This document shows positions 54,907 through 64,000 of a stretch of DNA of 64,000 nt, one piece after another. Source of the stretch: Candidatus Berkelbacteria bacterium (GTDB lineage: Bacteria > Patescibacteriota > UBA1384 > DTJR01). Under the pieces are notes generated by a model. That model saw nothing but the letters and a program-made list of their open reading frames with translations, had not been told where the DNA came from and ran no database searches. The first letter of the stretch is position 1. The number at the start of each line of letters is the position of its first letter. Where the stretch lies: contig JAPLVK010000022.1 in assembly GCA_026397175.1 (NCBI GenBank), forward strand, positions 5,689 through 69,688. The letters run 5' to 3'. Made by a program: the position numbers and the translations under genes.

Positions 54907-55232
54907 CAGAGGGTGTATCTTTATTACGCTGAATCTCGGAAAAATAAATTTAGAGAACTGATTTTTGATAACCCCGAGCCAAAGGATTCCCCTTGGGGAA
55001 GAGGACCCTTGGGGCATTTTTATGGTTCGCTCCGCCGGCTGGCGGATTTAGGATGAAAAAAAATTTATCCTATGATTCGTTGATAATATTTTTCGCCCAT
55101 TCGACTCGCTTCGCTCGTTCAGGATGAAAGTTGTCTTTATAATACCGATTTCTGGTAGCAACTTTCGCCCTTCGACAAGCTCCCTCCTTCGCTAAAGCTA
55201 CGGAAGGGCAAGCAGAGTGAATCTTGCTCGTG

Positions 55233-56954
55233 TTATATCACTTCTTTTTGGTAGCAAGATTCACAGTAAACTTTTTCCGGTCTTTCGGGTGCATAGGTGG
55301 TTTCGAATTCGTTGGGGCAGTGGCCAGAATGATCGTGGCCAGGCAGATCGCACATGCATTGGCGGTGATACAAAACCCGCGGATTGCGCAGTTTAAATAA
55401 TTCTTTGTATCTCACCTCGGAATGTTTAGTTGGCACGGGAATTCTCTGTCTTATATAAAACGCCAACTCTTGCGGCATGATTTTGAACGGTTTTCCCGAC
55501 TTTTCACATTTCAAAACTCCCGCCAGCAATTTTTTAACTTCTTCGTCTGAATTTATGTAATCATCAATTGAATCTTTTGGCTCGTAGGCTTCGCCTTTAT
55601 AATCAGGATTGTATTCTTTGTCCTGCCACTTGCCGCCAATTTTCTCGGCTTCTGCCTTGGTTTTGGGATGATAAATATTAGCCATTGTTTCGTTGTAACC
55701 AAACAAAGACATTTTCATCGGGCAAAACTCTCCCCACTCGCCGTCTTTTTGCATTCGCTCAATTATTTTTGGCACCAATTTATCATATTCTTCCTTGGTA
55801 TACTGTTTATTCAAAATACAATGCTGCTTGTGATTAATCCCGATACAGCCAAAACAATTTGAGCAGTAATCAATAAAGTTACAATACAAATTACTGTCTC
55901 CGTAGGCGGTCCAGACACTAAAACGGTTTTTGTAACCAGCGTTGCTTGTCCCGTCGTAACAGAGTTCCGCTTCGGTAATATAATCGAGGTCGCGGCAATC
56001 CTTGCTATCAGCATCAATATTGGTGATCCTGACACAATTTTGGCTTTTATAGGCGTTAAAACACTTTTTGCAGTCTTTACATTCAATTAAATAATCACCT
56101 GTGCAGTTTTCTGTTTTGACATTGTTGTTTTCTTTGTGAATCGCCTTGAGCATGCCTTCGCCGGATCTCTTTTTGTATTCTTCGACCACCGATCTTCTGC
56201 CAAAATCAATTTCCTTTAATTTCTTTTTGTATTCTTCTTCGGAGTACTCTTTGTTTTCAATGCAATATTGCTTATTGTGTAAACCCGCACAAAGCAAAAC
56301 ATTGTTGCACCCTCGGCAGTCGTAAGAAAAATAAGATTCGGAGCAATTCTCACAATGCTCTAAATACATTGAATTATGGCAATGATCGCAGTCAAAACAA
56401 TGGTAGCAATATTCACAATTTCTAATATCAAAACAATCAATGCAGTCCTTAGTATAAAAAGTTTCGGTGCAGTAATAGCATCTTTCCGCATAGCCAGCAT
56501 TAAAACAAAGATACGAATCCTTCGTCTGCCAAGTTTGATTGCAAAAATTACTGTTCTCAACGATGGTAGTATTGTTGGCCTGACGCGGAACGGCTAGTAA
56601 AAGTTCATTAAACTGCTCAAAAAATGACTGGTTGAAATCGAATTCACGGCCGAAGCTCATTGGATCCCAGTCGTCGGATCTCCAGACAGAATTTTTATAA
56701 ACCTTGTAGGGCTTGTCCGGAGAATAAACCGAGACAATTTCCTCGCCTGTTTTATCACATTTTCTTTTATAAAGTGAGCGCTCGTTTCTCCAGCAGAGTC
56801 GCCTGATTTGTCGGCAGGTGTAGCAAAGTTTTGGGGCATCAATTTTATAAACCCGCCCATTCAAAACCGGACTAATTTTTTCCAGAAACGCCAAATCATC
56901 ATCGCTAACGACAAATTCTTGTCCACATTGTTTGCAAGTTTTATTTTCTGCCAT
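55233..56954 (-). CDS. Cys-rich repeat protein with duplicated terminal zinc-ribbon-like domains
   Basis: N-terminus CKQCGQEF...ELAFLEKISP...CYTCRQIRRLCWRNERSLYKRKCDKTG...VY. The C-terminus repeats this pattern (KCEKSGKPFKI...ELAFYIRQRIPVP...CESCY). The middle has more than 12 C-x2-C units about 12-13 aa apart. Confidence 0.45.
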   Translation of the reverse strand: MAENKTCKQCGQEFVVSDDDLAFLEKISPVLNGRVYKIDAPKLCYTCRQIRRLCWRNERSLYKRKCDKTGEEIVSVYSPDKPYKVYKNSVWRSDDWDPMSFGREFDFNQSFFEQFNELLLAVPRQANNTTIVENSNFCNQTWQTKDSYLCFNAGYAERCYYCTETFYTKDCIDCFDIRNCEYCYHCFDCDHCHNSMYLEHCENCSESYFSYDCRGCNNVLLCAGLHNKQYCIENKEYSEEEYKKKLKEIDFGRRSVVEEYKKRSGEGMLKAIHKENNNVKTENCTGDYLIECKDCKKCFNAYKSQNCVRITNIDADSKDCRDLDYITEAELCYDGTSNAGYKNRFSVWTAYGDSNLYCNFIDYCSNCFGCIGINHKQHCILNKQYTKEEYDKLVPKIIERMQKDGEWGEFCPMKMSLFGYNETMANIYHPKTKAEAEKIGGKWQDKEYNPDYKGEAYEPKDSIDDYINSDEEVKKLLAGVLKCEKSGKPFKIMPQELAFYIRQRIPVPTKHSEVRYKELFKLRNPRVLYHRQCMCDLPGHDHSGHCPNEFETTYAPERPEKVYCESCYQKEVI

Positions 56955-57508
56955 TATATTCTTTTATACTCTTTTTCTAATCCAAGTTTTTTTACCCATT
57001 CGTTTATATAATCGTTATCCACTTTCGAAATCTCTAAAATTGATTTAATATCATCCGCGTGTCGGCTGGAATTGTCTTTTTGCATCCACTGAAGTTTGGA
57101 AATTATTAAATCCTCCGGGGAAATAAATCTAACTTCGCGGCCAATATCTTTTTTAATTGATCTTCTTAGTCGCAGTTTATCATAATCTTTGTTATAGACA
57201 ATCCAAAAATCAATTTTCATTCCGATATTTGGTTCTATAATATTGAACTCACCATTATTTTTTAGAGCATCTCTCATTTGAAGAGGATCTATATACGCAT
57301 CTGGAAATTCACTTTTTAATTTGCCGGCGAGCTGATCGATATTTTTTTCTTCGAGATGAATAACTAAATCAATATCTGCTGTAAACCGAGGTTTTCCCCA
57401 AACAGATACTGCAAAACCTCCGCTAACAAAAAAATCGATTCTTAAATTATTTAAGATTTCTGCGATTTTATTTAAGAGGTCTGTTGGGGTTTTGGGTTGT
57501 TTTTGCAT
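56954..57508 (-). CDS. Minimal nucleotidyltransferase (Pol-beta-like NTase fold) protein
   Basis: GGFAVSVWGKPRFTADIDLVIH matches the hG[GS]x9-13Dh[DE]h motif. Its stop overlaps the next ATG as TAATG. Confidence 0.6.
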   Translation of the reverse strand: MQKQPKTPTDLLNKIAEILNNLRIDFFVSGGFAVSVWGKPRFTADIDLVIHLEEKNIDQLAGKLKSEFPDAYIDPLQMRDALKNNGEFNIIEPNIGMKIDFWIVYNKDYDKLRLRRSIKKDIGREVRFISPEDLIISKLQWMQKDNSSRHADDIKSILEISKVDNDYINEWVKKLGLEKEYKRI

Positions 57509-57645
57509 TTGAAAAATTTGGGGTTAACTTTTTTTGCGTACGCAAAAAAACCGTTTAGCATTTCGAGTTTTTCAGTAGCCGTTTTTCCCTTGATTACCGA
57601 CATATAAAATTTATCGGCTTTAGAGGTTGCGCTTTTTTTCTTCAT
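57472..57645 (-). CDS. Small basic protein overlapping the NTase start
   Basis: MKKKSATSKADKFYMSVIKGKTATEKLEMLNGFFAYAKKVNPKFFKCKNNPKPQQTS; 37-bp overlap with the NTase start. Confidence 0.3.
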   Translation of the reverse strand: MKKKSATSKADKFYMSVIKGKTATEKLEMLNGFFAYAKKVNPKFFKCKNNPKPQQTS

Positions 57646-57754
57646 ATTGTTTAAAGTTTCCCACAAACCACTTGAAAAATAAAGCATAACCAAACTCCAC
57701 CCGCCGGGTGGAGTTTTAAGGGTTTTGATTGATCTGTTTAAAATTTAAATTTAT

Positions 57755-58840
57755 TTATAGCACACTTTTAATAATCTCCAGGGCTTTTTTGAGCTTGATC
57801 TTATCTGATATCAAACTAATTCTGAAATAATCTTTTCGAGAAGAAAAAATACTTCCGGGCATCACAAGCACGCCTTTTTTCGCTAGTTCGGCAACGAATA
57901 TTTTCTCTTCTGATGGGCATTTTATAAAAAAATAAAAACCGCCGTCAGGAATCACAAATTTGAAATTACCACCTAGCTCTTTTATTACCATATCTCGATT
58001 TTTCTTATATATCTTTGAAGCTTTTTGGGAAATATCAAGGTTATCCACAAATAATTCTTGAATAAAATCCGCGACACAGACCTGCTCTAGAAACAAAAGT
58101 TTATTGGCGGCTTCGATCACTTCGACCGGCCCGCACAAGTAGCCGATTCTCAATCCGGTTGCGGCGTGGGATTTAGAAAAACTGTTGACAACAATGGTTT
58201 TATAGTAAAACTCTGCCGGGCTTAAGAATTTATTGTCATAATCGAAATCCTTATATACCTCGTCGGAGATTATAAACAAATCATGTTTCTTGGCTAGCTT
58301 GACGACCTCAAGCAAAAATTCTTTGGTATAAATCCGGCCGGTAGGGTTGCTTGGGGAATTGAGTAAGATTGCTTTGGTCTTTGTTGAGATTTTTTTGCTG
58401 ATTTGTGATAACTCGGGAATGAATGTTGGAAAGGTTGGGATGACCTTCGGTTTAGCCCCAACAATTTTGGCAAGCTCAATGTACGGAGGAAAATAGGGCT
58501 CAAAAATAATAATCTCGTCATCACGATCAAAAAGCGTTTGATAAGCAAGAAACAAAGAATACGAACTGCCAGTAGTGATTAGAATATTATCTTTGGTGTA
58601 TTGAGTTTTGTTCTGATTGTTGATGTGATCCGCGATTTGTTCTCGAAGTATAGTGTTTCCTTTGGAAGATGAGTATTTAAATCGAGAATTTGAACAGTTG
58701 AGAAGTTTTTGTTTAACCTTTTTGTGCACATCAAAATCGGGTTCCCCGATCGTAAGGTTAATCAAATCGTTTGATTGGGATTTGAAATAACCTTCGAGGT
58801 TAGGCAGGATGATCCTATTAATTGTTTTTGACAGTTTCAT
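57755..58840 (-). CDS. Class I/II pyridoxal-phosphate aminotransferase
   Basis: NLTIGEPDF, ...SFSKSHAATGLRIGY (PLP lysine). Start taken at Met-19 (MKLSKTIN...). Confidence 0.8.
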   Translation of the reverse strand: MKLSKTINRIILPNLEGYFKSQSNDLINLTIGEPDFDVHKKVKQKLLNCSNSRFKYSSSKGNTILREQIADHINNQNKTQYTKDNILITTGSSYSLFLAYQTLFDRDDEIIIFEPYFPPYIELAKIVGAKPKVIPTFPTFIPELSQISKKISTKTKAILLNSPSNPTGRIYTKEFLLEVVKLAKKHDLFIISDEVYKDFDYDNKFLSPAEFYYKTIVVNSFSKSHAATGLRIGYLCGPVEVIEAANKLLFLEQVCVADFIQELFVDNLDISQKASKIYKKNRDMVIKELGGNFKFVIPDGGFYFFIKCPSEEKIFVAELAKKGVLVMPGSIFSSRKDYFRISLISDKIKLKKALEIIKSVL

Positions 58841-59913
58841 TGGATTTGTTTTGCTTCGCTTTCTCAACTTTCTCTTTAGCAATTTGGTAAGCAATCATCA
58901 TCGGAGGAACATTTTTTTCTTTCGATAGCGCAAATACCTGCTTCAAAAGGCCCGGAATTAAGTCGGTTTTCTTGAGCGCATTATTGACATCTTCGCCTCT
59001 CACTTCGCACATACCATGGCAAACTCCTCCTGCATTGATTACAAAGTCAGGAGCATGAAGGATGCCCTTTGCGTACAAAATCCGGCTGTGTTTTACTTCG
59101 TCCTTTAGCTGATTATTCGCTCCACCAGCGATTATTTTGCAATTTAACTCATCAATCGAATCATCATTAATTATTTCTCCGATTGCATTGGGAGAGAAGA
59201 TATCACATTTTACTTTGTGAATTTCTTTTGGATCAACTATCTCAACACTATATTCTTTTTCGTATTTTTTGGTCAGCGCTTCATCAAGATCAGAACCGTA
59301 AATCTTAACATTATGCGAAGAAAGCAGCTCAACAAGCGTCCCACCAACATATCCGAGCCCTTGCACTGCTATAGTTAAGCCGTCAAGATTCTCGTTATTG
59401 AGAAATTCTTTTGCGCATTCCTTAATCCCTTTATAAACGCCGTGTCCGGTTGTTACGCCCGAGCATCCTTTGGAGTTAAAGATGTACTTCGTTTTTTCGC
59501 GAATGATTTTGGCGTCATCGAGGCTAAGTCCCATATCAACTCCGGTTAGAAATGCTCCGCCCAAGGATTCTATGAAATTGCCGATTGCATGCAAAAATTC
59601 TTTGCTTTTTGGTTTACTGGGATCACCGATCACTACCGCTTTTGATCCGCCAAAGGGCTCGTTTATAATTGCATTTTTATATGTCATAGCATAAGAAAGA
59701 CGCAGCGCTTCTTCGATCGCCTTGGCTTCCGAAACATCCACCATTCTGGTTCCGCCCGTGCTTGGCCCCAGTGTGGTATCATGAATCGCTACAACCATTT
59801 TTAATCCGGTCTCCTGGTTGTACCCGAAAATGATTTTCTCGTGCTCGTTGGTTTCCATAATGTCGAAGACATTTGTCTTGATGTCTGGTTCGATATAGGT
59901 GAGTTTTTTCATG
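58818..59913 (-). CDS. Leucine/phenylalanine dehydrogenase-like (Glu/Leu/Phe/Val DH family)
   Basis: VAIHDTTLGPSTGGTRM... and a Rossmann GLGYVGG. Start taken at MKKLTYIE, preceded by GGAGGAA at a 5-nt spacing; the ORF-track N-terminal extension is unsupported. Confidence 0.8.
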
Positions 59914-59932
59914 AATTCCTCCATAAGTTTAT

Positions 59933-60117
59933 TTAATAAAAAAATCTTTCGCTTAAAAGGACGAAAGATTTCTTCCGTGGTGCCACCTTTTTTGCCTGCT
60001 GTTGCAGGCCCCTTAGACACTCCGGTATTACCCGACATGTCTTAGCTCGATTACGGGAGCTCCCGGCGTTGGCTACTATTAGTTCACCAAGCGTCTCGCA
60101 GGCCCATTCTCCTGGTC
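59933..60117 (-). promoter_or_regulatory. Roughly 185-nt 5' leader with terminator/anti-terminator features; possible T-box-like attenuator
   Basis: Minus-strand ...GGGGCCUGCAACAGCAGGC-AAAAAAGGUGGCACCACGGAAG-AAAUCUUUCG-uccuuuuaag-CGAAAGAUUU-UUUUUAUU, then the SD. GGUGGCACCACGG is close to the T-box consensus AGGGUGGNACCGCG. Confidence 0.35.
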
Positions 60118-60125
60118 ATCAACTT

Positions 60126-60154
60126 TCTTAAATTTAATATACAACTAAATATTT
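60126..60154 (-). promoter_or_regulatory. Sigma70-like promoter TTGACA-17-TATATT (minus strand)
   Basis: Reverse complement of tgtcaa (60149-60154) and aatata (60126-60131), with a 17-nt spacer. Confidence 0.55.
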
Positions 60155-60224
60155 ATTTTGTCAAATAAATAAACAAACATGGCGCCGTCAGAGACGGCGC
60201 CATGGGACGATGCACAAGCAATCG

Positions 60225-61196
60225 CTAGATGATCGCGCGAATTGCTTCGAGCGTTGAGAGTTGCTCGTCGGGGATGACATTGCCGAACACATTGTTCAGC
60301 ACTGTTACCACCCCAGTCGGAGCAACTCCATTGCGGGAGATACAGTAGAGGAAACCCTTCGGGAAGGTCTTCACTTGGACGAAATATTCGGTCGGCGGGA
60401 AAACCATCCCAACCAAACGGTTCAGACCAACCTGGTCAAACCAGTTGGAGAGGAAAAAACCTCCTTGATCTTTACGAACACCGACGACCTGCAGACCAAT
60501 GATGTCTGGCCTCTGGACTAGTTGTCTTGCGGTGCAAGATATCAGTTCTAACTTGAACTCCTCCAGCGCGACCGAATCCAAGTCCGCGCTAAGTTCCATG
60601 CCGGTCTCGATTCGGGAGATCTCCTGGCCGTTGAAAGTCAGGTAGTCGAACCAGAAGTTGTCGCCAAGAATCTCGCGGTTGGCAATGTACTCGTCGAACC
60701 CAGCATTCGGGTAGCCGTGATCAGGGTTCGGGAGGAAGAAGGCCTTAACATCATACACACCCATAATCAGAGTGCGATTGGCGGGTGGAACACCGCCGGC
60801 GATATCGAGGATCGCTCCGGGATGGTAGCTGATATCAGCGCCACATTCCTGACACTTGGCCAGAGTATGGCTCTTGGCCGTTGCGAGCAGATTCGGCGAC
60901 AGGTCGTTGAAGAAAACATTGACCAATCCTCTGTTCGGCGGCTTGCAGGGATCACATCCGGAGCAGATGGCCTGCTTAAAGATCATCAGCGGATCTCGGC
61001 AACCAACCGCTCCACCAAATGTTACAACATTCGAGATACCAGGGATTCTCCTGCAAATCTCGATTACAGCGTCCATCTCACCTGCGTTGTCGACCGTCAT
61101 GTCGGCGGTCTCGTAGATATCAAACTGCCGATCCCAAAACTTGAGTTGGCCCGCCCTATCAAGGGCGGGCTTTCGCCAGGAACACGGGTTTGCCAT
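60225..61196 (-). CDS. Hypothetical GC-rich protein with Cys cluster (possible class-I methyltransferase-like fold)
   Basis: ...VVTFGGAVGCRDPLMI... is Gly-rich and SAM-loop-like; CSGCDPCKPP...CQECGAD. Start at MANPCSW; the ORF-track start abuts the tRNA. Function not recognised. Confidence 0.4.
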   Translation of the reverse strand: MANPCSWRKPALDRAGQLKFWDRQFDIYETADMTVDNAGEMDAVIEICRRIPGISNVVTFGGAVGCRDPLMIFKQAICSGCDPCKPPNRGLVNVFFNDLSPNLLATAKSHTLAKCQECGADISYHPGAILDIAGGVPPANRTLIMGVYDVKAFFLPNPDHGYPNAGFDEYIANREILGDNFWFDYLTFNGQEISRIETGMELSADLDSVALEEFKLELISCTARQLVQRPDIIGLQVVGVRKDQGGFFLSNWFDQVGLNRLVGMVFPPTEYFVQVKTFPKGFLYCISRNGVAPTGVVTVLNNVFGNVIPDEQLSTLEAIRAII

Positions 61197-61227
61197 AGTG
61201 AACGCCTCCTTGGATTGGTGGAACATT

Positions 61228-61303
61228 TGGCACGCCGGCGGGGACTTGAACCCCGAACCTTCGGTTTTGGAGACCGCTACTCTGCCAATTGAGCTACCGG
61301 CGT
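61228..61303 (-). tRNA. tRNA-Trp(CCA), copy 1
   Basis: ACGCCGG-UA-GCUC-AAUUGGCA-GAGU-A-GCGGU-CUCCAAA-ACCGA-AGGUU-CGGGG-UUCAAGU-CCCCG-CCGGCGU-G-CCA; discriminator G73. Confidence 0.8.
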
Positions 61304-61309
61304 GTTTTC

Positions 61310-61777
61310 CTACGCTGATAAGTCACTGATGATTGGGTCAGCGACAAGTAGCAGGTCAGAGAACTTAATCTTCAAGCTCGATGTCCTTTGTCCGAGGCCG
61401 CAGTAAACGGTTTCGGAATCTATCGAAGAGTCGAATGCGGTTACGAGTTGAAGCCCAAACGGCGGGATTGCTCCGATTTCCACATTCAGACGGTCTTGTA
61501 CCTCTTGGGTCGTGGCCAGATCAACCTGGGATCTCGATAGTCCGAAAGCTTTTGCTGCTTTGGATCGTGAGATTCGTTTGTCGCCTGGCAATACAGCTAA
61601 CAGCAAATTGCCGGATCGCTTGTCCTTGAGAATGATGGCCTTAACCATCTGGACATATTCTATGCCCAGCACTCGAAAAACATCATCCGTTGTTATGACC
61701 GCTTCGTGATCAATAACCTCAAACGGCAGGTTACGGTCAGTGAGGATTGCTATCAGTTTGTTTTTCATGATGATCAC
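61310..61777 (-). CDS. YbaK/ProX-family aminoacyl-tRNA deacylase-like protein
   Basis: 155 aa. ...VKAIILKDKRSGNLLLAVLPGDKRISRSKAAKAFGL...EIGAIPPFGL is typical of the YbaK/ProX trans-editing fold. Confidence 0.65.
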   Translation of the reverse strand: MIIMKNKLIAILTDRNLPFEVIDHEAVITTDDVFRVLGIEYVQMVKAIILKDKRSGNLLLAVLPGDKRISRSKAAKAFGLSRSQVDLATTQEVQDRLNVEIGAIPPFGLQLVTAFDSSIDSETVYCGLGQRTSSLKIKFSDLLLVADPIISDLSA

Positions 61778-61786
61778 AGGTTAAAA

Positions 61787-61862
61787 TTGGCACGCCGGCG
61801 GGGACTTGAACCCCGAACCTTCGGTTTTGGAGACCGCTACTCTGCCAATTGAGCTACCGGCG
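61787..61862 (-). tRNA. tRNA-Trp(CCA), copy 2
   Basis: Identical to copy 1 except for acceptor position 1 (G1·U72 rather than A1-U72). Confidence 0.8.
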
Positions 61863-61873
61863 CGCAATTCTAC

Positions 61874-62872
61874 CTAGAACCGTATCAGTCCGACTTTGGT
61901 CCGGACTTCCTCGAGTGTTTCTGTGGCACTTTCGCGCGCCGTGATTCCTCCTTGGTGCAGAACATCGCGCACGAGGTTCTTTTGTCGCGCGAGTACTTGT
62001 CGCCTTTCTTGCATCGGTGCCAGCATGCTAATGACCGCGCTAGCAAAGCAGTCCTTGCACTCAACACAGCCAATTTGGGCATTCTCACAAACCGGTATGA
62101 TGTCTTGGGCGGCTTTATCGGCTCCCAAGACATGCTCCTGTAGTACATAGAGATTACACTCCCAGGGATGTCCCGAGTCGGTGCGTCTCTCACGCTTGGG
62201 GTCTGTGAGGGCATTGCGGCACTTCTGTCTGATAATCTCCTCTGAATCAGTCAGGGCGATTGTCGCACCCGAGGACTTACTCATCTTGCCTTCGCCCCCT
62301 AAGCTCGGGACACGGATGTCCTTGCCGGAAAGCTTCTTGGGGATGGGAAAGGTCAAACCGAATTTGGCGTTGAAGCTCCGGGCCAGATCGCGAGCTATCT
62401 CGAGATGAGGCAGTTGATCTTCACCGACAGGAACGACATTGGCCTTCTGGATGAGAATATCGGCCGCCATAAGTATCGGGTAGGTCAGAAGACCCGTGTT
62501 GATGTTGTCCGGTTGAGACGCCGCTTTTTCCTTGTAGGTAGGGCAACGCTCGAGCACAGAAACCATCATGAGGTTGGACAAAATCCAACTCAATTCAGGG
62601 ATCTGCGGGACAGACGACTGGGCGAAGATGACCGCCTTTTCCGGATCAAGTCCAGCAGCAAGATAGTCCAGTACAAGTTCTCCAAGGTTGTCGCGTAGCT
62701 CGGCCGGGTTAGTTAGCGTCGTCAACGAATGCCAATCAGCCACAAAGAAGTGGCAGTTGTATTCGTCTTGCATCTGGACGAAGTTTCGGATTGCGCCCAG
62801 ATAGTTCCCGAGATGCACATTGCCGGTGGCGCGGATACCCGACACCACAATTGGTTTCAAACTGGTCTCCAT
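61874..62872 (-). CDS. trpS: Tryptophanyl-tRNA synthetase with C-x22-C-x6-C-x2-C motif
   Basis: GNVHLGNYLGAIRNF (HIGH-type) and KMSKS. The insert CNLYVLQEHVLGADKAAQDIIPVCENAQIGCVECKDC has the same Cys spacing as the [4Fe-4S]-binding TrpRS of Thermotoga. Confidence 0.9.
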   Translation of the reverse strand: METSLKPIVVSGIRATGNVHLGNYLGAIRNFVQMQDEYNCHFFVADWHSLTTLTNPAELRDNLGELVLDYLAAGLDPEKAVIFAQSSVPQIPELSWILSNLMMVSVLERCPTYKEKAASQPDNINTGLLTYPILMAADILIQKANVVPVGEDQLPHLEIARDLARSFNAKFGLTFPIPKKLSGKDIRVPSLGGEGKMSKSSGATIALTDSEEIIRQKCRNALTDPKRERRTDSGHPWECNLYVLQEHVLGADKAAQDIIPVCENAQIGCVECKDCFASAVISMLAPMQERRQVLARQKNLVRDVLHQGGITARESATETLEEVRTKVGLIRF

Positions 62873-62925
62873 TTAGATTCTCCATTCTATCAAAAATGCA
62901 TCGCGTTAGACACGATCTTGTACTC

Positions 62926-62952
62926 TTTATAACAGATAAATTAATATTGTCA
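62926..62952 (-). promoter_or_regulatory. Sigma70-like promoter upstream of trpS (TTGACA-15/16-TTATAA)
   Basis: Minus-strand gagtgTTGACAatattaatttatctgTTATAAagag, then GGAG 7 nt before the ATG. Confidence 0.45.
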
Positions 62953-63069
62953 ACACTCCTGTTAATTTAGTTTTAACTTAAACTATTCAGGATCTATTGC
63001 TCGAAAAAACCTGTTTATTCTCATCTGGCTAATGAGATAATAGTACTTCTTCACAAAAGTTACATGGCC

Positions 63070-64000
63070 CTACAAGATTGGTGCCGAGAAGTTTTCGTCT
63101 TTGAGTTTGTCGAGGACTTCCAGCTCTTTAGATTTTTCGCGTGAAATTTCCCGCTCGGCCTCGGCTTTATTGATACAATAATTCGCGCGCGAGTTTGCGA
63201 CAATTTGTTCTTTAAATGAAGTTGTAACTTCGGGAACGGTCAGTGTTTTGGCGGAGAAGGCCTCTTTGACCTCTTCGTCAATTGAAAGTTTGAGATAAAT
63301 TTCGCGAACACCCAAATTTGTAATATCAATGGCTTTAAATCGCGGCTCAAATTCTTGCTCCAAAAGCGCGGCATCCTCCGGCCCGATTCTAAAGGAGATG
63401 ATCGAGCCGACATTTCCAAAAACCGTTTTGCGAATAACTTCTGAAAGCTGCGAAACATATTGATGAGACATGGTCAGCGATAATTTATATTTCCTTGATT
63501 CTGACAAGATGTTTGAAAATGATTCGGTGGCAAAGTTTTGAAACTCATCAACATTAAGATAAAACGGCACGCGTTGATTTTCAGCAACATCGGCGCGAGC
63601 GAGCGCGGTTTGATAAATTCTGGTGATCAACATCGCGCCCAAAAGAGAAACATTTTCTTCGCCCAAAATCCCCTTCGGCAATTTAACCAGAAGGATCTTT
63701 TTGTTATCCATAATATCTTTGAGCACAACTTTATTTTCTTCTTGACCGACAATATTTCGAATCAGAGCGTTTGAAACAAACTGGCCGATTTTATTTAAAA
63801 TCGGCATAATCGCTTCGGAGTCAAACTTTTCCGACCAGCCGGCAAATTCGTTGGTCCAGAAATTTTTAACAACTTGATCTTCGATCGTTTTGATAATTTC
63901 TTGACGATATTCTCGGTCGGTTAAAATAAGCAAAATTGACATAACCGAGGCCTTGGGCGCGTCAAGCAAAGCCAAAAGCGTCATTCTTAAAACATGCTCG
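63070..64000 (-). CDS. C-terminal part of a HerA/TraG/VirD4-like (DUF87/AAA-like) ATPase; N-terminus beyond the window
   Basis: ...VPFYLNVDEFQNFATESF... resembles the Walker-B/DEFHxL region of DUF87/coupling-protein ATPases. The ORF is still open at 64000. Confidence 0.35.
   Translation of the reverse strand, partial: EHVLRMTLLALLDAPKASVMSILLILTDREYRQEIIKTIEDQVVKNFWTNEFAGWSEKFDSEAIMPILNKIGQFVSNALIRNIVGQEENKVVLKDIMDNKKILLVKLPKGILGEENVSLLGAMLITRIYQTALARADVAENQRVPFYLNVDEFQNFATESFSNILSESRKYKLSLTMSHQYVSQLSEVIRKTVFGNVGSIISFRIGPEDAALLEQEFEPRFKAIDITNLGVREIYLKLSIDEEVKEAFSAKTLTVPEVTTSFKEQIVANSRANYCINKAEAEREISREKSKELEVLDKLKDENFSAPIL

Follow-up and report, generated by a model that had tools for sequence, protein, structure and literature searches.

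The locus described here lies in a 64,000-nucleotide stretch of DNA (the window) from a Candidatus Berkelbacteria bacterium (contig JAPLVK010000022.1), and comprises a two-gene operon, the untranslated leader in front of it and, further upstream, two tRNA-Trp genes and the gene for tryptophanyl-tRNA synthetase (TrpRS). The operon encodes an amino-acid dehydrogenase (DH) and an aminotransferase (AT), and the leader has the features of a T-box, the class of RNA element that senses uncharged tRNA. The elements are, in their order along the minus strand:

61874..62872, minus strand: tryptophanyl-tRNA synthetase (PF00579; TIGR00233 trpS, 297.5 bits against a cut-off of 176.75)
61788..61863, minus strand: second tRNA-Trp, identical to the following one except for G1.U72
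61228..61303, minus strand: tRNA-Trp (CCA anticodon, A1-U72, G73, CCA encoded), the proposed effector
60136..60164, minus strand: sigma-70-type promoter TTGACA-17-TATATT, with 11 of 12 consensus matches
59938..60128, minus strand: RNA of the probable T-box leader, Stem I through the last base of the terminator U-run (RF00230 and custom model R1)
60093..60123, minus strand: ultrashort Stem I, with a 3-bp closing helix, K-turn, 4-bp helix CAGG/CCUG and 8-nt loop
60104..60106, minus strand: proposed Specifier Sequence UGG (Trp), in the loop AGAAUGGG (60110..60103), with a purine (G) after it
60066..60092, minus strand: Stem II with an S-turn-type GAA/AGUA loop, aligned to RF00230 Stem II
60044..60065, minus strand: Stem IIA/B pseudoknot, a CGG...CCG hairpin whose loop AGCUC pairs with GAGCU, followed by CCGUAA
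60015..60042, minus strand: extra hairpin, conserved and inserted with respect to RF00230, that lies between Stem IIA/B and Stem III
59994..60009, minus strand: Stem III, GCCUGC-AACA-GCAGGC, with AAGGG purines before it and an A-run after it
59957..59989, minus strand: antiterminator with the T-box sequence, formed by a 4-bp helix, the 7-nt bulge UGGCACC (59985..59979) and a 6-bp helix
59938..59975, minus strand: intrinsic terminator hairpin and U7 (U-run 59944..59938), the MFE and centroid structure of the leader
58818..59912, minus strand: ELFV (Glu/Leu/Phe/Val) amino-acid dehydrogenase of 364 aa, first gene (PF02812 and PF00208)
57755..58894, minus strand: class I/II aminotransferase of the AspAT/aromatic-AT subgroup, second gene (PF00155)
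57692..57716, minus strand: terminator-like hairpin that closes the two-gene operon, with an 11-bp stem, 40 nt past the aminotransferase stop

The first-pass annotation of this DNA had claimed a consensus promoter and a leader of about 185 nt that ends in a hairpin and U7 just before a GGAGGAA ribosome-binding site (RBS). Both are present: the promoter is found at 60164..60136, transcription starts at about 60128, and the leader is about 190 nt long. The gene upstream of the promoter ends in its own terminator at 60204..60178, and TTGACA-type promoters are found at an equal distance in the relatives L001, L003, L004, L005, L014 and L015. The RBS occupies 59922..59916 and the ATG start codon lies at 59912 (minus strand). 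The RBS is located 16 nt downstream of the U-run, outside both of the alternative structures that the leader can adopt (terminator and antiterminator), and its region is given as unpaired in the MFE fold of 60135..59935, a fold that reaches 59935 only. A long open reading frame (60038..58818) runs in frame through the leader; it was dismissed as reading through into the true gene, the 364-aa frame that matches P0001.

In a covariance-model scan of the minus strand, the Rfam T-box model RF00230 aligned with the leader from 60128 to 59954 over model positions 1-219 with a score of 69.9 bits, which corresponds to an E-value of 2.7e-15 in the local scan and of 4.2e-13 when the whole window was compared with all 4227 Rfam families. 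The gathering score of the family is 93 bits, and the leader is therefore missed by a default Rfam scan: at this threshold no T-box was found in the window or in the relatives L001-L012, and the elements become visible with E-value thresholds only. When RF00230 was applied without a threshold, matches were obtained in 12 of the 12 relatives tested, at 30-72 bits, whilst the custom model R1 scores the window leader at 187 bits. The low RF00230 score is explained by the model alignment, in which 72 Stem I positions have shrunk to 4 nt. Further Rfam matches in the leader, to PyrR, tfoR, sRNA and miRNA families (E 0.03-10), were set aside as chance: the terminator hairpins alone had been picked up.

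The reduction is concentrated in Stem I. The long form of this stem, with an AG bay and a distal loop whose interdigitated T-loops stack on the tRNA elbow, is absent from the leader. What is found in its place is a K-turn with a GAU bulge and tandem G.A/A.G pairs (GUU-GAU-GA...GA-GAC in the window), surmounted by the 4-bp helix and a terminal loop that reads AGAA-UGG-G. Two forms of Stem I occur among the related leaders, termed class A (which includes the window) and class B, and both present UGGG. In class A the closing helix covaries (ACC/GGU versus GUU/GAC), the CAGG/CCUG helix is invariant, and the loop AGAAUGGG is invariant in the 7 distinct leaders. Class B relatives have no K-turn (GA motif) at the Stem I base; they carry UUGGG as an invariant bulge of 5 nt that occupies the equivalent position with respect to the lower helix, with just a 6-7-bp hairpin above it. 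UGGG is the sole element that the class A loop and the class B bulge have in common, and in both classes it stands immediately 5' of the lower helix. The UGG within it is complementary to the anticodon CCA of the adjacent tRNA-Trp genes. Because the loops of the two classes do not vary, we infer the register of the specifier rather than prove it. The terminal loop would supply the specifier that could not be confirmed by eye in the first-pass annotation.

Downstream of Stem I, the helices have been conserved by paired changes. In Stem II, 81.6% of cells are paired in class A, and 5 of 6 pairs show compensatory changes in class B. The IIA/B pseudoknot covaries in both classes, as GCUC/GAGC, ACUC/GAGU and GUUC/GAAC in class A and as UCCU/AGGA, UCCC/GGGA, GUUCU/AGAAC and AGACU/AGUCU in class B. 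The extra hairpin contains an invariant internal loop (AUGUCG/CGGAGU), and its basal helix shows compensatory changes in 3 of 5 pairs (class A) and 3 of 4 pairs (class B); in Stem III they are seen in all 5 of the pairs counted.

The 3' part of the leader forms the switch. It contains the T-box sequence AAAAAAGGUGGCACCACGG, in which 59985..59982 form the bulge UGGC, and the segment AAGGUGGCACCACG at 59989..59976 aligns to the RF00230 T-box with high posterior probability. The 3' strand of the antiterminator is also the 5' arm of the terminator, and the two structures are mutually exclusive; their computed energies are -17.7 kcal/mol (terminator) and -4.8 kcal/mol (antiterminator). Antiterminator helices 9 and 10 are 100% paired in class A, pairing of the antiterminator helices reaches 100% in the two sets of 7 and 18 relatives, and a hairpin followed by at least 5 U is found in 27 of 27 distinct leaders. 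The bulge UGGC is complementary to the 3' end G73-C-C-A of tRNA-Trp, two genes for which lie 1.3-1.9 kb upstream of the leader, both ending in G73-CCA. In every leader the bulge is UGGC or UGGU, never with A or G in the last position, and C is found in about two thirds; this position thus fits only a tRNA with G73. All 16 of the linked tRNA-Trp genes checked carry G73, loci with a UGGU bulge included.

Of 37 loci from CPR MAGs and metagenomes that could be assessed, 36 have a homologous leader in front of the DH orthologue; in one orthologous locus (L021) no T-box was found. Complete CPR genomes, OY969116.1 among them, also contain the module. Across the 7 distinct sequences of class A, 93.6% of cells are paired and 14 pairs show compensatory changes (slid controls 36-50%), and across the 18 of class B, 96.7% are paired, with compensatory changes in 26 of 40 pairs (slid controls 36-59%); these counts include the IIA/B pseudoknot. 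The first-pass annotation had proposed a tRNA-sensing T-box leader on the basis of a sequence near the antiterminator consensus 5' of the terminator, with a variable base C that would pair with G73 of the nearby tRNA-Trp, and had suggested that it be checked with RF00230 on the minus strand, by manual folding and by comparison of relatives; the lack of a model match, of an antiterminator or of a conserved leader was to count against it. All three are present, as a significant RF00230 match (E 4.2e-13 for the window), a canonical antiterminator able to sequester the terminator 5' arm, and a leader conserved with compensatory changes; both tRNA-Trp genes of the window carry G73. The identification as a T-box is supported. 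The leader is not of the standard form, because the Stem I distal platform is absent.

The protein-coding genes were also compared with known families. The DH belongs to a separate, CPR-only clade (62-84% identity), and the next best matches are Firmicutes leucine dehydrogenases (LeuDH) at 45%; a look-up of its exact protein sequence found no entry. It scores 285 bits against LeuDH and 265 bits against tryptophan dehydrogenase (TrpDH), and the best NCBIfam match is ScyB (NF035922) at 309.5 bits, far below the cut-off of 600. It has the same ELFV fold and length as LeuDH (PDB 1LEH) and NpTrpDH/ScyB (PDB 5B37), and the catalytic Lys/Asp motifs are kept in the alignments to LeuDH and TrpDH. An invariant motif GGVCHGM stands in place of GGVINVA. 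We take the side-chain pocket of LeuDH to be formed by L40, A113, V291 and V294 (B. sphaericus numbering, 1LEH). In the alignment to 1LEH the DH has T/G/V/G at positions 40/113/291/294, and the CPR clade shows no variation in these residues; LeuDH has L/A/V/V there and TrpDH has M/G/L/V. Gly at position 113 is thus shared with TrpDH, and also with PheDH. With the substitutions L40 to T, A113 to G and V294 to G, the pocket is predicted to be larger than that of LeuDH. The operon had been described as a LeuDH/aminotransferase operon: an ELFV dehydrogenase and an aminotransferase do lie downstream, but to call the first of them LeuDH is questionable, since it departs from LeuDH at three of the four pocket positions. 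The aminotransferase, which starts at TTG 58894 or ATG 58840, has its best PDB relatives among Thermotoga and Thermus AspAT and a Pyrococcus aromatic AT, and in relatives its gene invariably neighbours that of the DH.

The T-box/DH/AT unit usually lies close to genes for TrpRS and tRNA-Trp. TrpRS adjoins it in 17 fetched loci as well as in the window, and in many loci TrpRS and tRNA-Trp genes flank it. In the relative L024 a leader with the UUGGG bulge precedes trpB-trpA-DH-AT. Further conserved neighbours encode a SAM-methyltransferase-fold protein and a YbaK-like deacylase; both genes are outside the T-box transcription unit, from which they are separated in the window by a terminator and a promoter, and they lie on the opposite strand in most class B loci.

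Taken from its sequence features, the leader is very probably a genuine tRNA-sensing T-box riboswitch that reads tRNA-Trp and turns on the DH-AT operon of a CPR bacterium with a tiny genome. It is likely that this Trp-specific T-box acts by transcription attenuation, and that the operon serves to raise the supply of Trp. By default, RNA transcribed from about 60128 would fold into the terminator (59975..59938), and transcription would stop before the DH gene. The anticodon CCA of tRNA-Trp would pair with UGG in the terminal loop of the K-turn-based ultrashort Stem I, and this contact probably draws support from the S-turn of Stem II and from the IIA/B pseudoknot, in the manner of the actinobacterial ileS T-boxes. 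An uncharged tRNA would pair through its 3' end G73-C-C-A with the bulge UGGC and stabilise the antiterminator, so that RNA polymerase could read into the DH-AT operon. The enzymes would then most likely provide more Trp, with indole-3-pyruvate as the substrate of reductive amination and/or transamination, in a host with presumably little or no de novo Trp synthesis; that they aminate indole-3-pyruvate to Trp is probable from the regulatory and genomic context. From the elements of sequence and structure, their conservation and covariation, the fit of codon and discriminator base to the linked tRNA-Trp, and the gene associations, we infer that the leader binds tRNA, that the enzymes act in this direction and on this substrate, and that the switch functions without the elbow-binding platform of Stem I. 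Several points count against this reading: the score lies below 93 bits, the loops that hold the proposed specifier do not vary, the DH resembles LeuDH about as much as TrpDH and falls far short of the ScyB cut-off, the locus L021 has no T-box, and a platform that is absent here has been reported to be essential for transcriptional T-boxes (PMC7583486).

Among the T-boxes described so far, an ultrashort (US) Stem I is confined to actinobacterial ileS T-boxes that act on translation (bioRxiv 10.1101/2023.02.28.530422; PMC7583486), with US or short forms in Mycobacterium and Nocardia (Sherwood, Grundy and Henkin 2015, as cited in these two sources). The definition of the class is taken from bioRxiv 10.1101/2023.02.28.530422, and, as worded there, it describes what is seen in the leader, where a K-turn carries a 4-bp helix that ends in a terminal loop of 8 nt (AGAAUGGG). 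Both lack a distal double-T-loop platform, and both have kept the Stem II S-turn, the IIA/B pseudoknot, Stem III and the UGGN bulge. They differ in that the US ileS T-boxes have a Shine-Dalgarno sequestrator, whereas the CPR leader has an intrinsic terminator and U-run; the proposed specifier is UGG (Trp) rather than AUC (Ile), the target is a dehydrogenase-aminotransferase operon rather than ileS, the host is a CPR bacterium rather than an actinobacterium, and the extra hairpin that lies after Stem IIA/B and before Stem III, conserved among the relatives, is a feature of the CPR leader alone. With canonical RF00230 T-boxes the leader shares the antiterminator/terminator switch, the UGGN bulge matched to the discriminator base, the K-turn at the base of Stem I (class A), and Stems II, IIA/B and III; as in those, uncharged tRNA would induce genes whose products make more of the cognate amino acid available. 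In contrast to them, the upper two thirds of Stem I (the AG bay and the distal loop, which bind the tRNA elbow) are missing, and all members score below the gathering threshold (30-72 versus 93 bits). In Firmicutes and Chloroflexi, canonical Trp-specific T-boxes precede trpS or genes of trp biosynthesis (PMC2494555), whereas the enzymes regulated here lie outside the classical trp pathway. Judged by its sequence, the leader presents a new combination of ultrashort Stem I, intrinsic terminator, apparent Trp specificity, non-aaRS target and CPR host. No paper that joins T-boxes with CPR, Patescibacteria, Saccharibacteria, Parcubacteria or Berkelbacteria was found in a search outside which most subscription journals lay, and an earlier description is possible.

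Other readings of the leader itself can be weighed against these observations. Given that the US form of Stem I has so far been described in translational ileS T-boxes only (bioRxiv 10.1101/2023.02.28.530422; PMC7583486), the leader might act on translation, or at both levels, as its actinobacterial counterparts do; this is very unlikely, since the MFE structure is a GC-containing hairpin directly before U7, such a hairpin with at least 5 U recurs in all 27 distinct leaders, and the GGAGGAA RBS stays clear of both alternative structures. A T-box for another tRNA has in its favour the leucine dehydrogenase annotation of the downstream gene and the invariance of the loops, which leaves the register not proven by variation: UUG (Leu) could be read in class B, AUG (Met), AAU (Asn) or GAA (Glu) in class A, and GGG (Gly) in the shared element. 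UGG and GGG alone occur in both classes, though, the linked genes are those for tRNA-Trp and TrpRS and not Leu or Gly genes, and the L024 leader drives trpB-trpA. Bacterial tRNA-Leu, tRNA-Met and tRNA-Val carry A73, and tRNA-Gly carries U73. Such tRNAs cannot pair with the C of about two thirds of the bulges, and UGGA occurs in no leader, which makes a different tRNA highly improbable; the candidate specifiers UUG, GGG, AUG, AAU, GAA and GUU (Val) were rejected on cross-class conservation and discriminator pairing. That the element is a decayed remnant, or a chance likeness beside an ordinary terminator without any regulatory role, would accord with the sub-threshold score and the loss of much of Stem I. 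It is hardly credible when helices are kept by compensatory changes across about 25 distinct sequences, with an adjacent protein that differs by up to 35%, when the functional loops are invariant, and when the match has E 4e-13. Attenuation through a leader peptide was also considered, and no Trp-rich leader peptide is present in the leader.

The role of the operon is less firmly indicated than that of the riboswitch. The assignment to tRNA-Trp and attenuation could be right and the operon nevertheless not make Trp from indole-3-pyruvate, but act in the amination of hydrophobic or aromatic keto acids, in the regeneration of an amino donor, or in a pathway linked to the methyltransferase and YbaK-like proteins, for example one for a modified tryptophan. 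In favour of this alternative, the DH resembles TrpDH no more than it does LeuDH, the aminotransferase falls in the broad-specificity AspAT/aromatic-AT group, and the methyltransferase-fold and YbaK-like proteins are conserved neighbours. It is nonetheless rather unlikely: induction under uncharged tRNA-Trp fits Trp supply, DH-AT is co-transcribed with trpBA in L024, and the T-box transcription unit includes neither the methyltransferase gene nor the YbaK gene.

If the preferred reading, a Trp-specific attenuator, is correct, this family from another phylum joins a Stem I of ultrashort or short form to an intrinsic terminator, a Trp specifier and a target that is not a synthetase, and it therefore tests the need for elbow binding in co-transcriptional tRNA sensing. 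At about 190 nt, the leader is a very compact natural candidate for a tRNA-Trp sensor. With all members under the Rfam threshold, T-boxes are invisible in CPR genomes annotated in that way. The regulatory link would also give a probable tryptophan-salvage role to a widespread ‘leucine dehydrogenase’/aminotransferase pair, and ties it to a conserved neighbourhood of TrpRS, tRNA-Trp, YbaK-like and methyltransferase genes in presumed amino-acid auxotrophs. More speculatively, these may be the first transcription-terminating T-boxes without an elbow platform, in which the extra hairpin (60042..60015), together with Stem II and IIA/B, supplies the affinity and speed, and the operon may be a hitherto unrecognised CPR route to Trp from scavenged indole-3-pyruvate within a widely conserved, self-contained Trp island (TrpRS, 1-2 tRNA-Trp, YbaK-like deacylase and SAM-methyltransferase-fold protein); taken as a whole, this picture is possible but tentative. 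The island may also perform tRNA-Trp-linked chemistry or proofreading.

Some observations concern the wider surroundings. A methyltransferase-YbaK fusion (P0151) has no DH or AT nearby. For the 333-aa neighbour, no sequence match was obtained in Pfam, NCBIfam or the PDB, and structure prediction gives a generic class I SAM-methyltransferase fold only. PADLOC returned nothing for the NTase and the 573-aa protein, and a megablast of 55000-64000 against plasmids and phages gave no match. Nothing marks the region as a known mobile element, although a TraG-D_C gene is located upstream.

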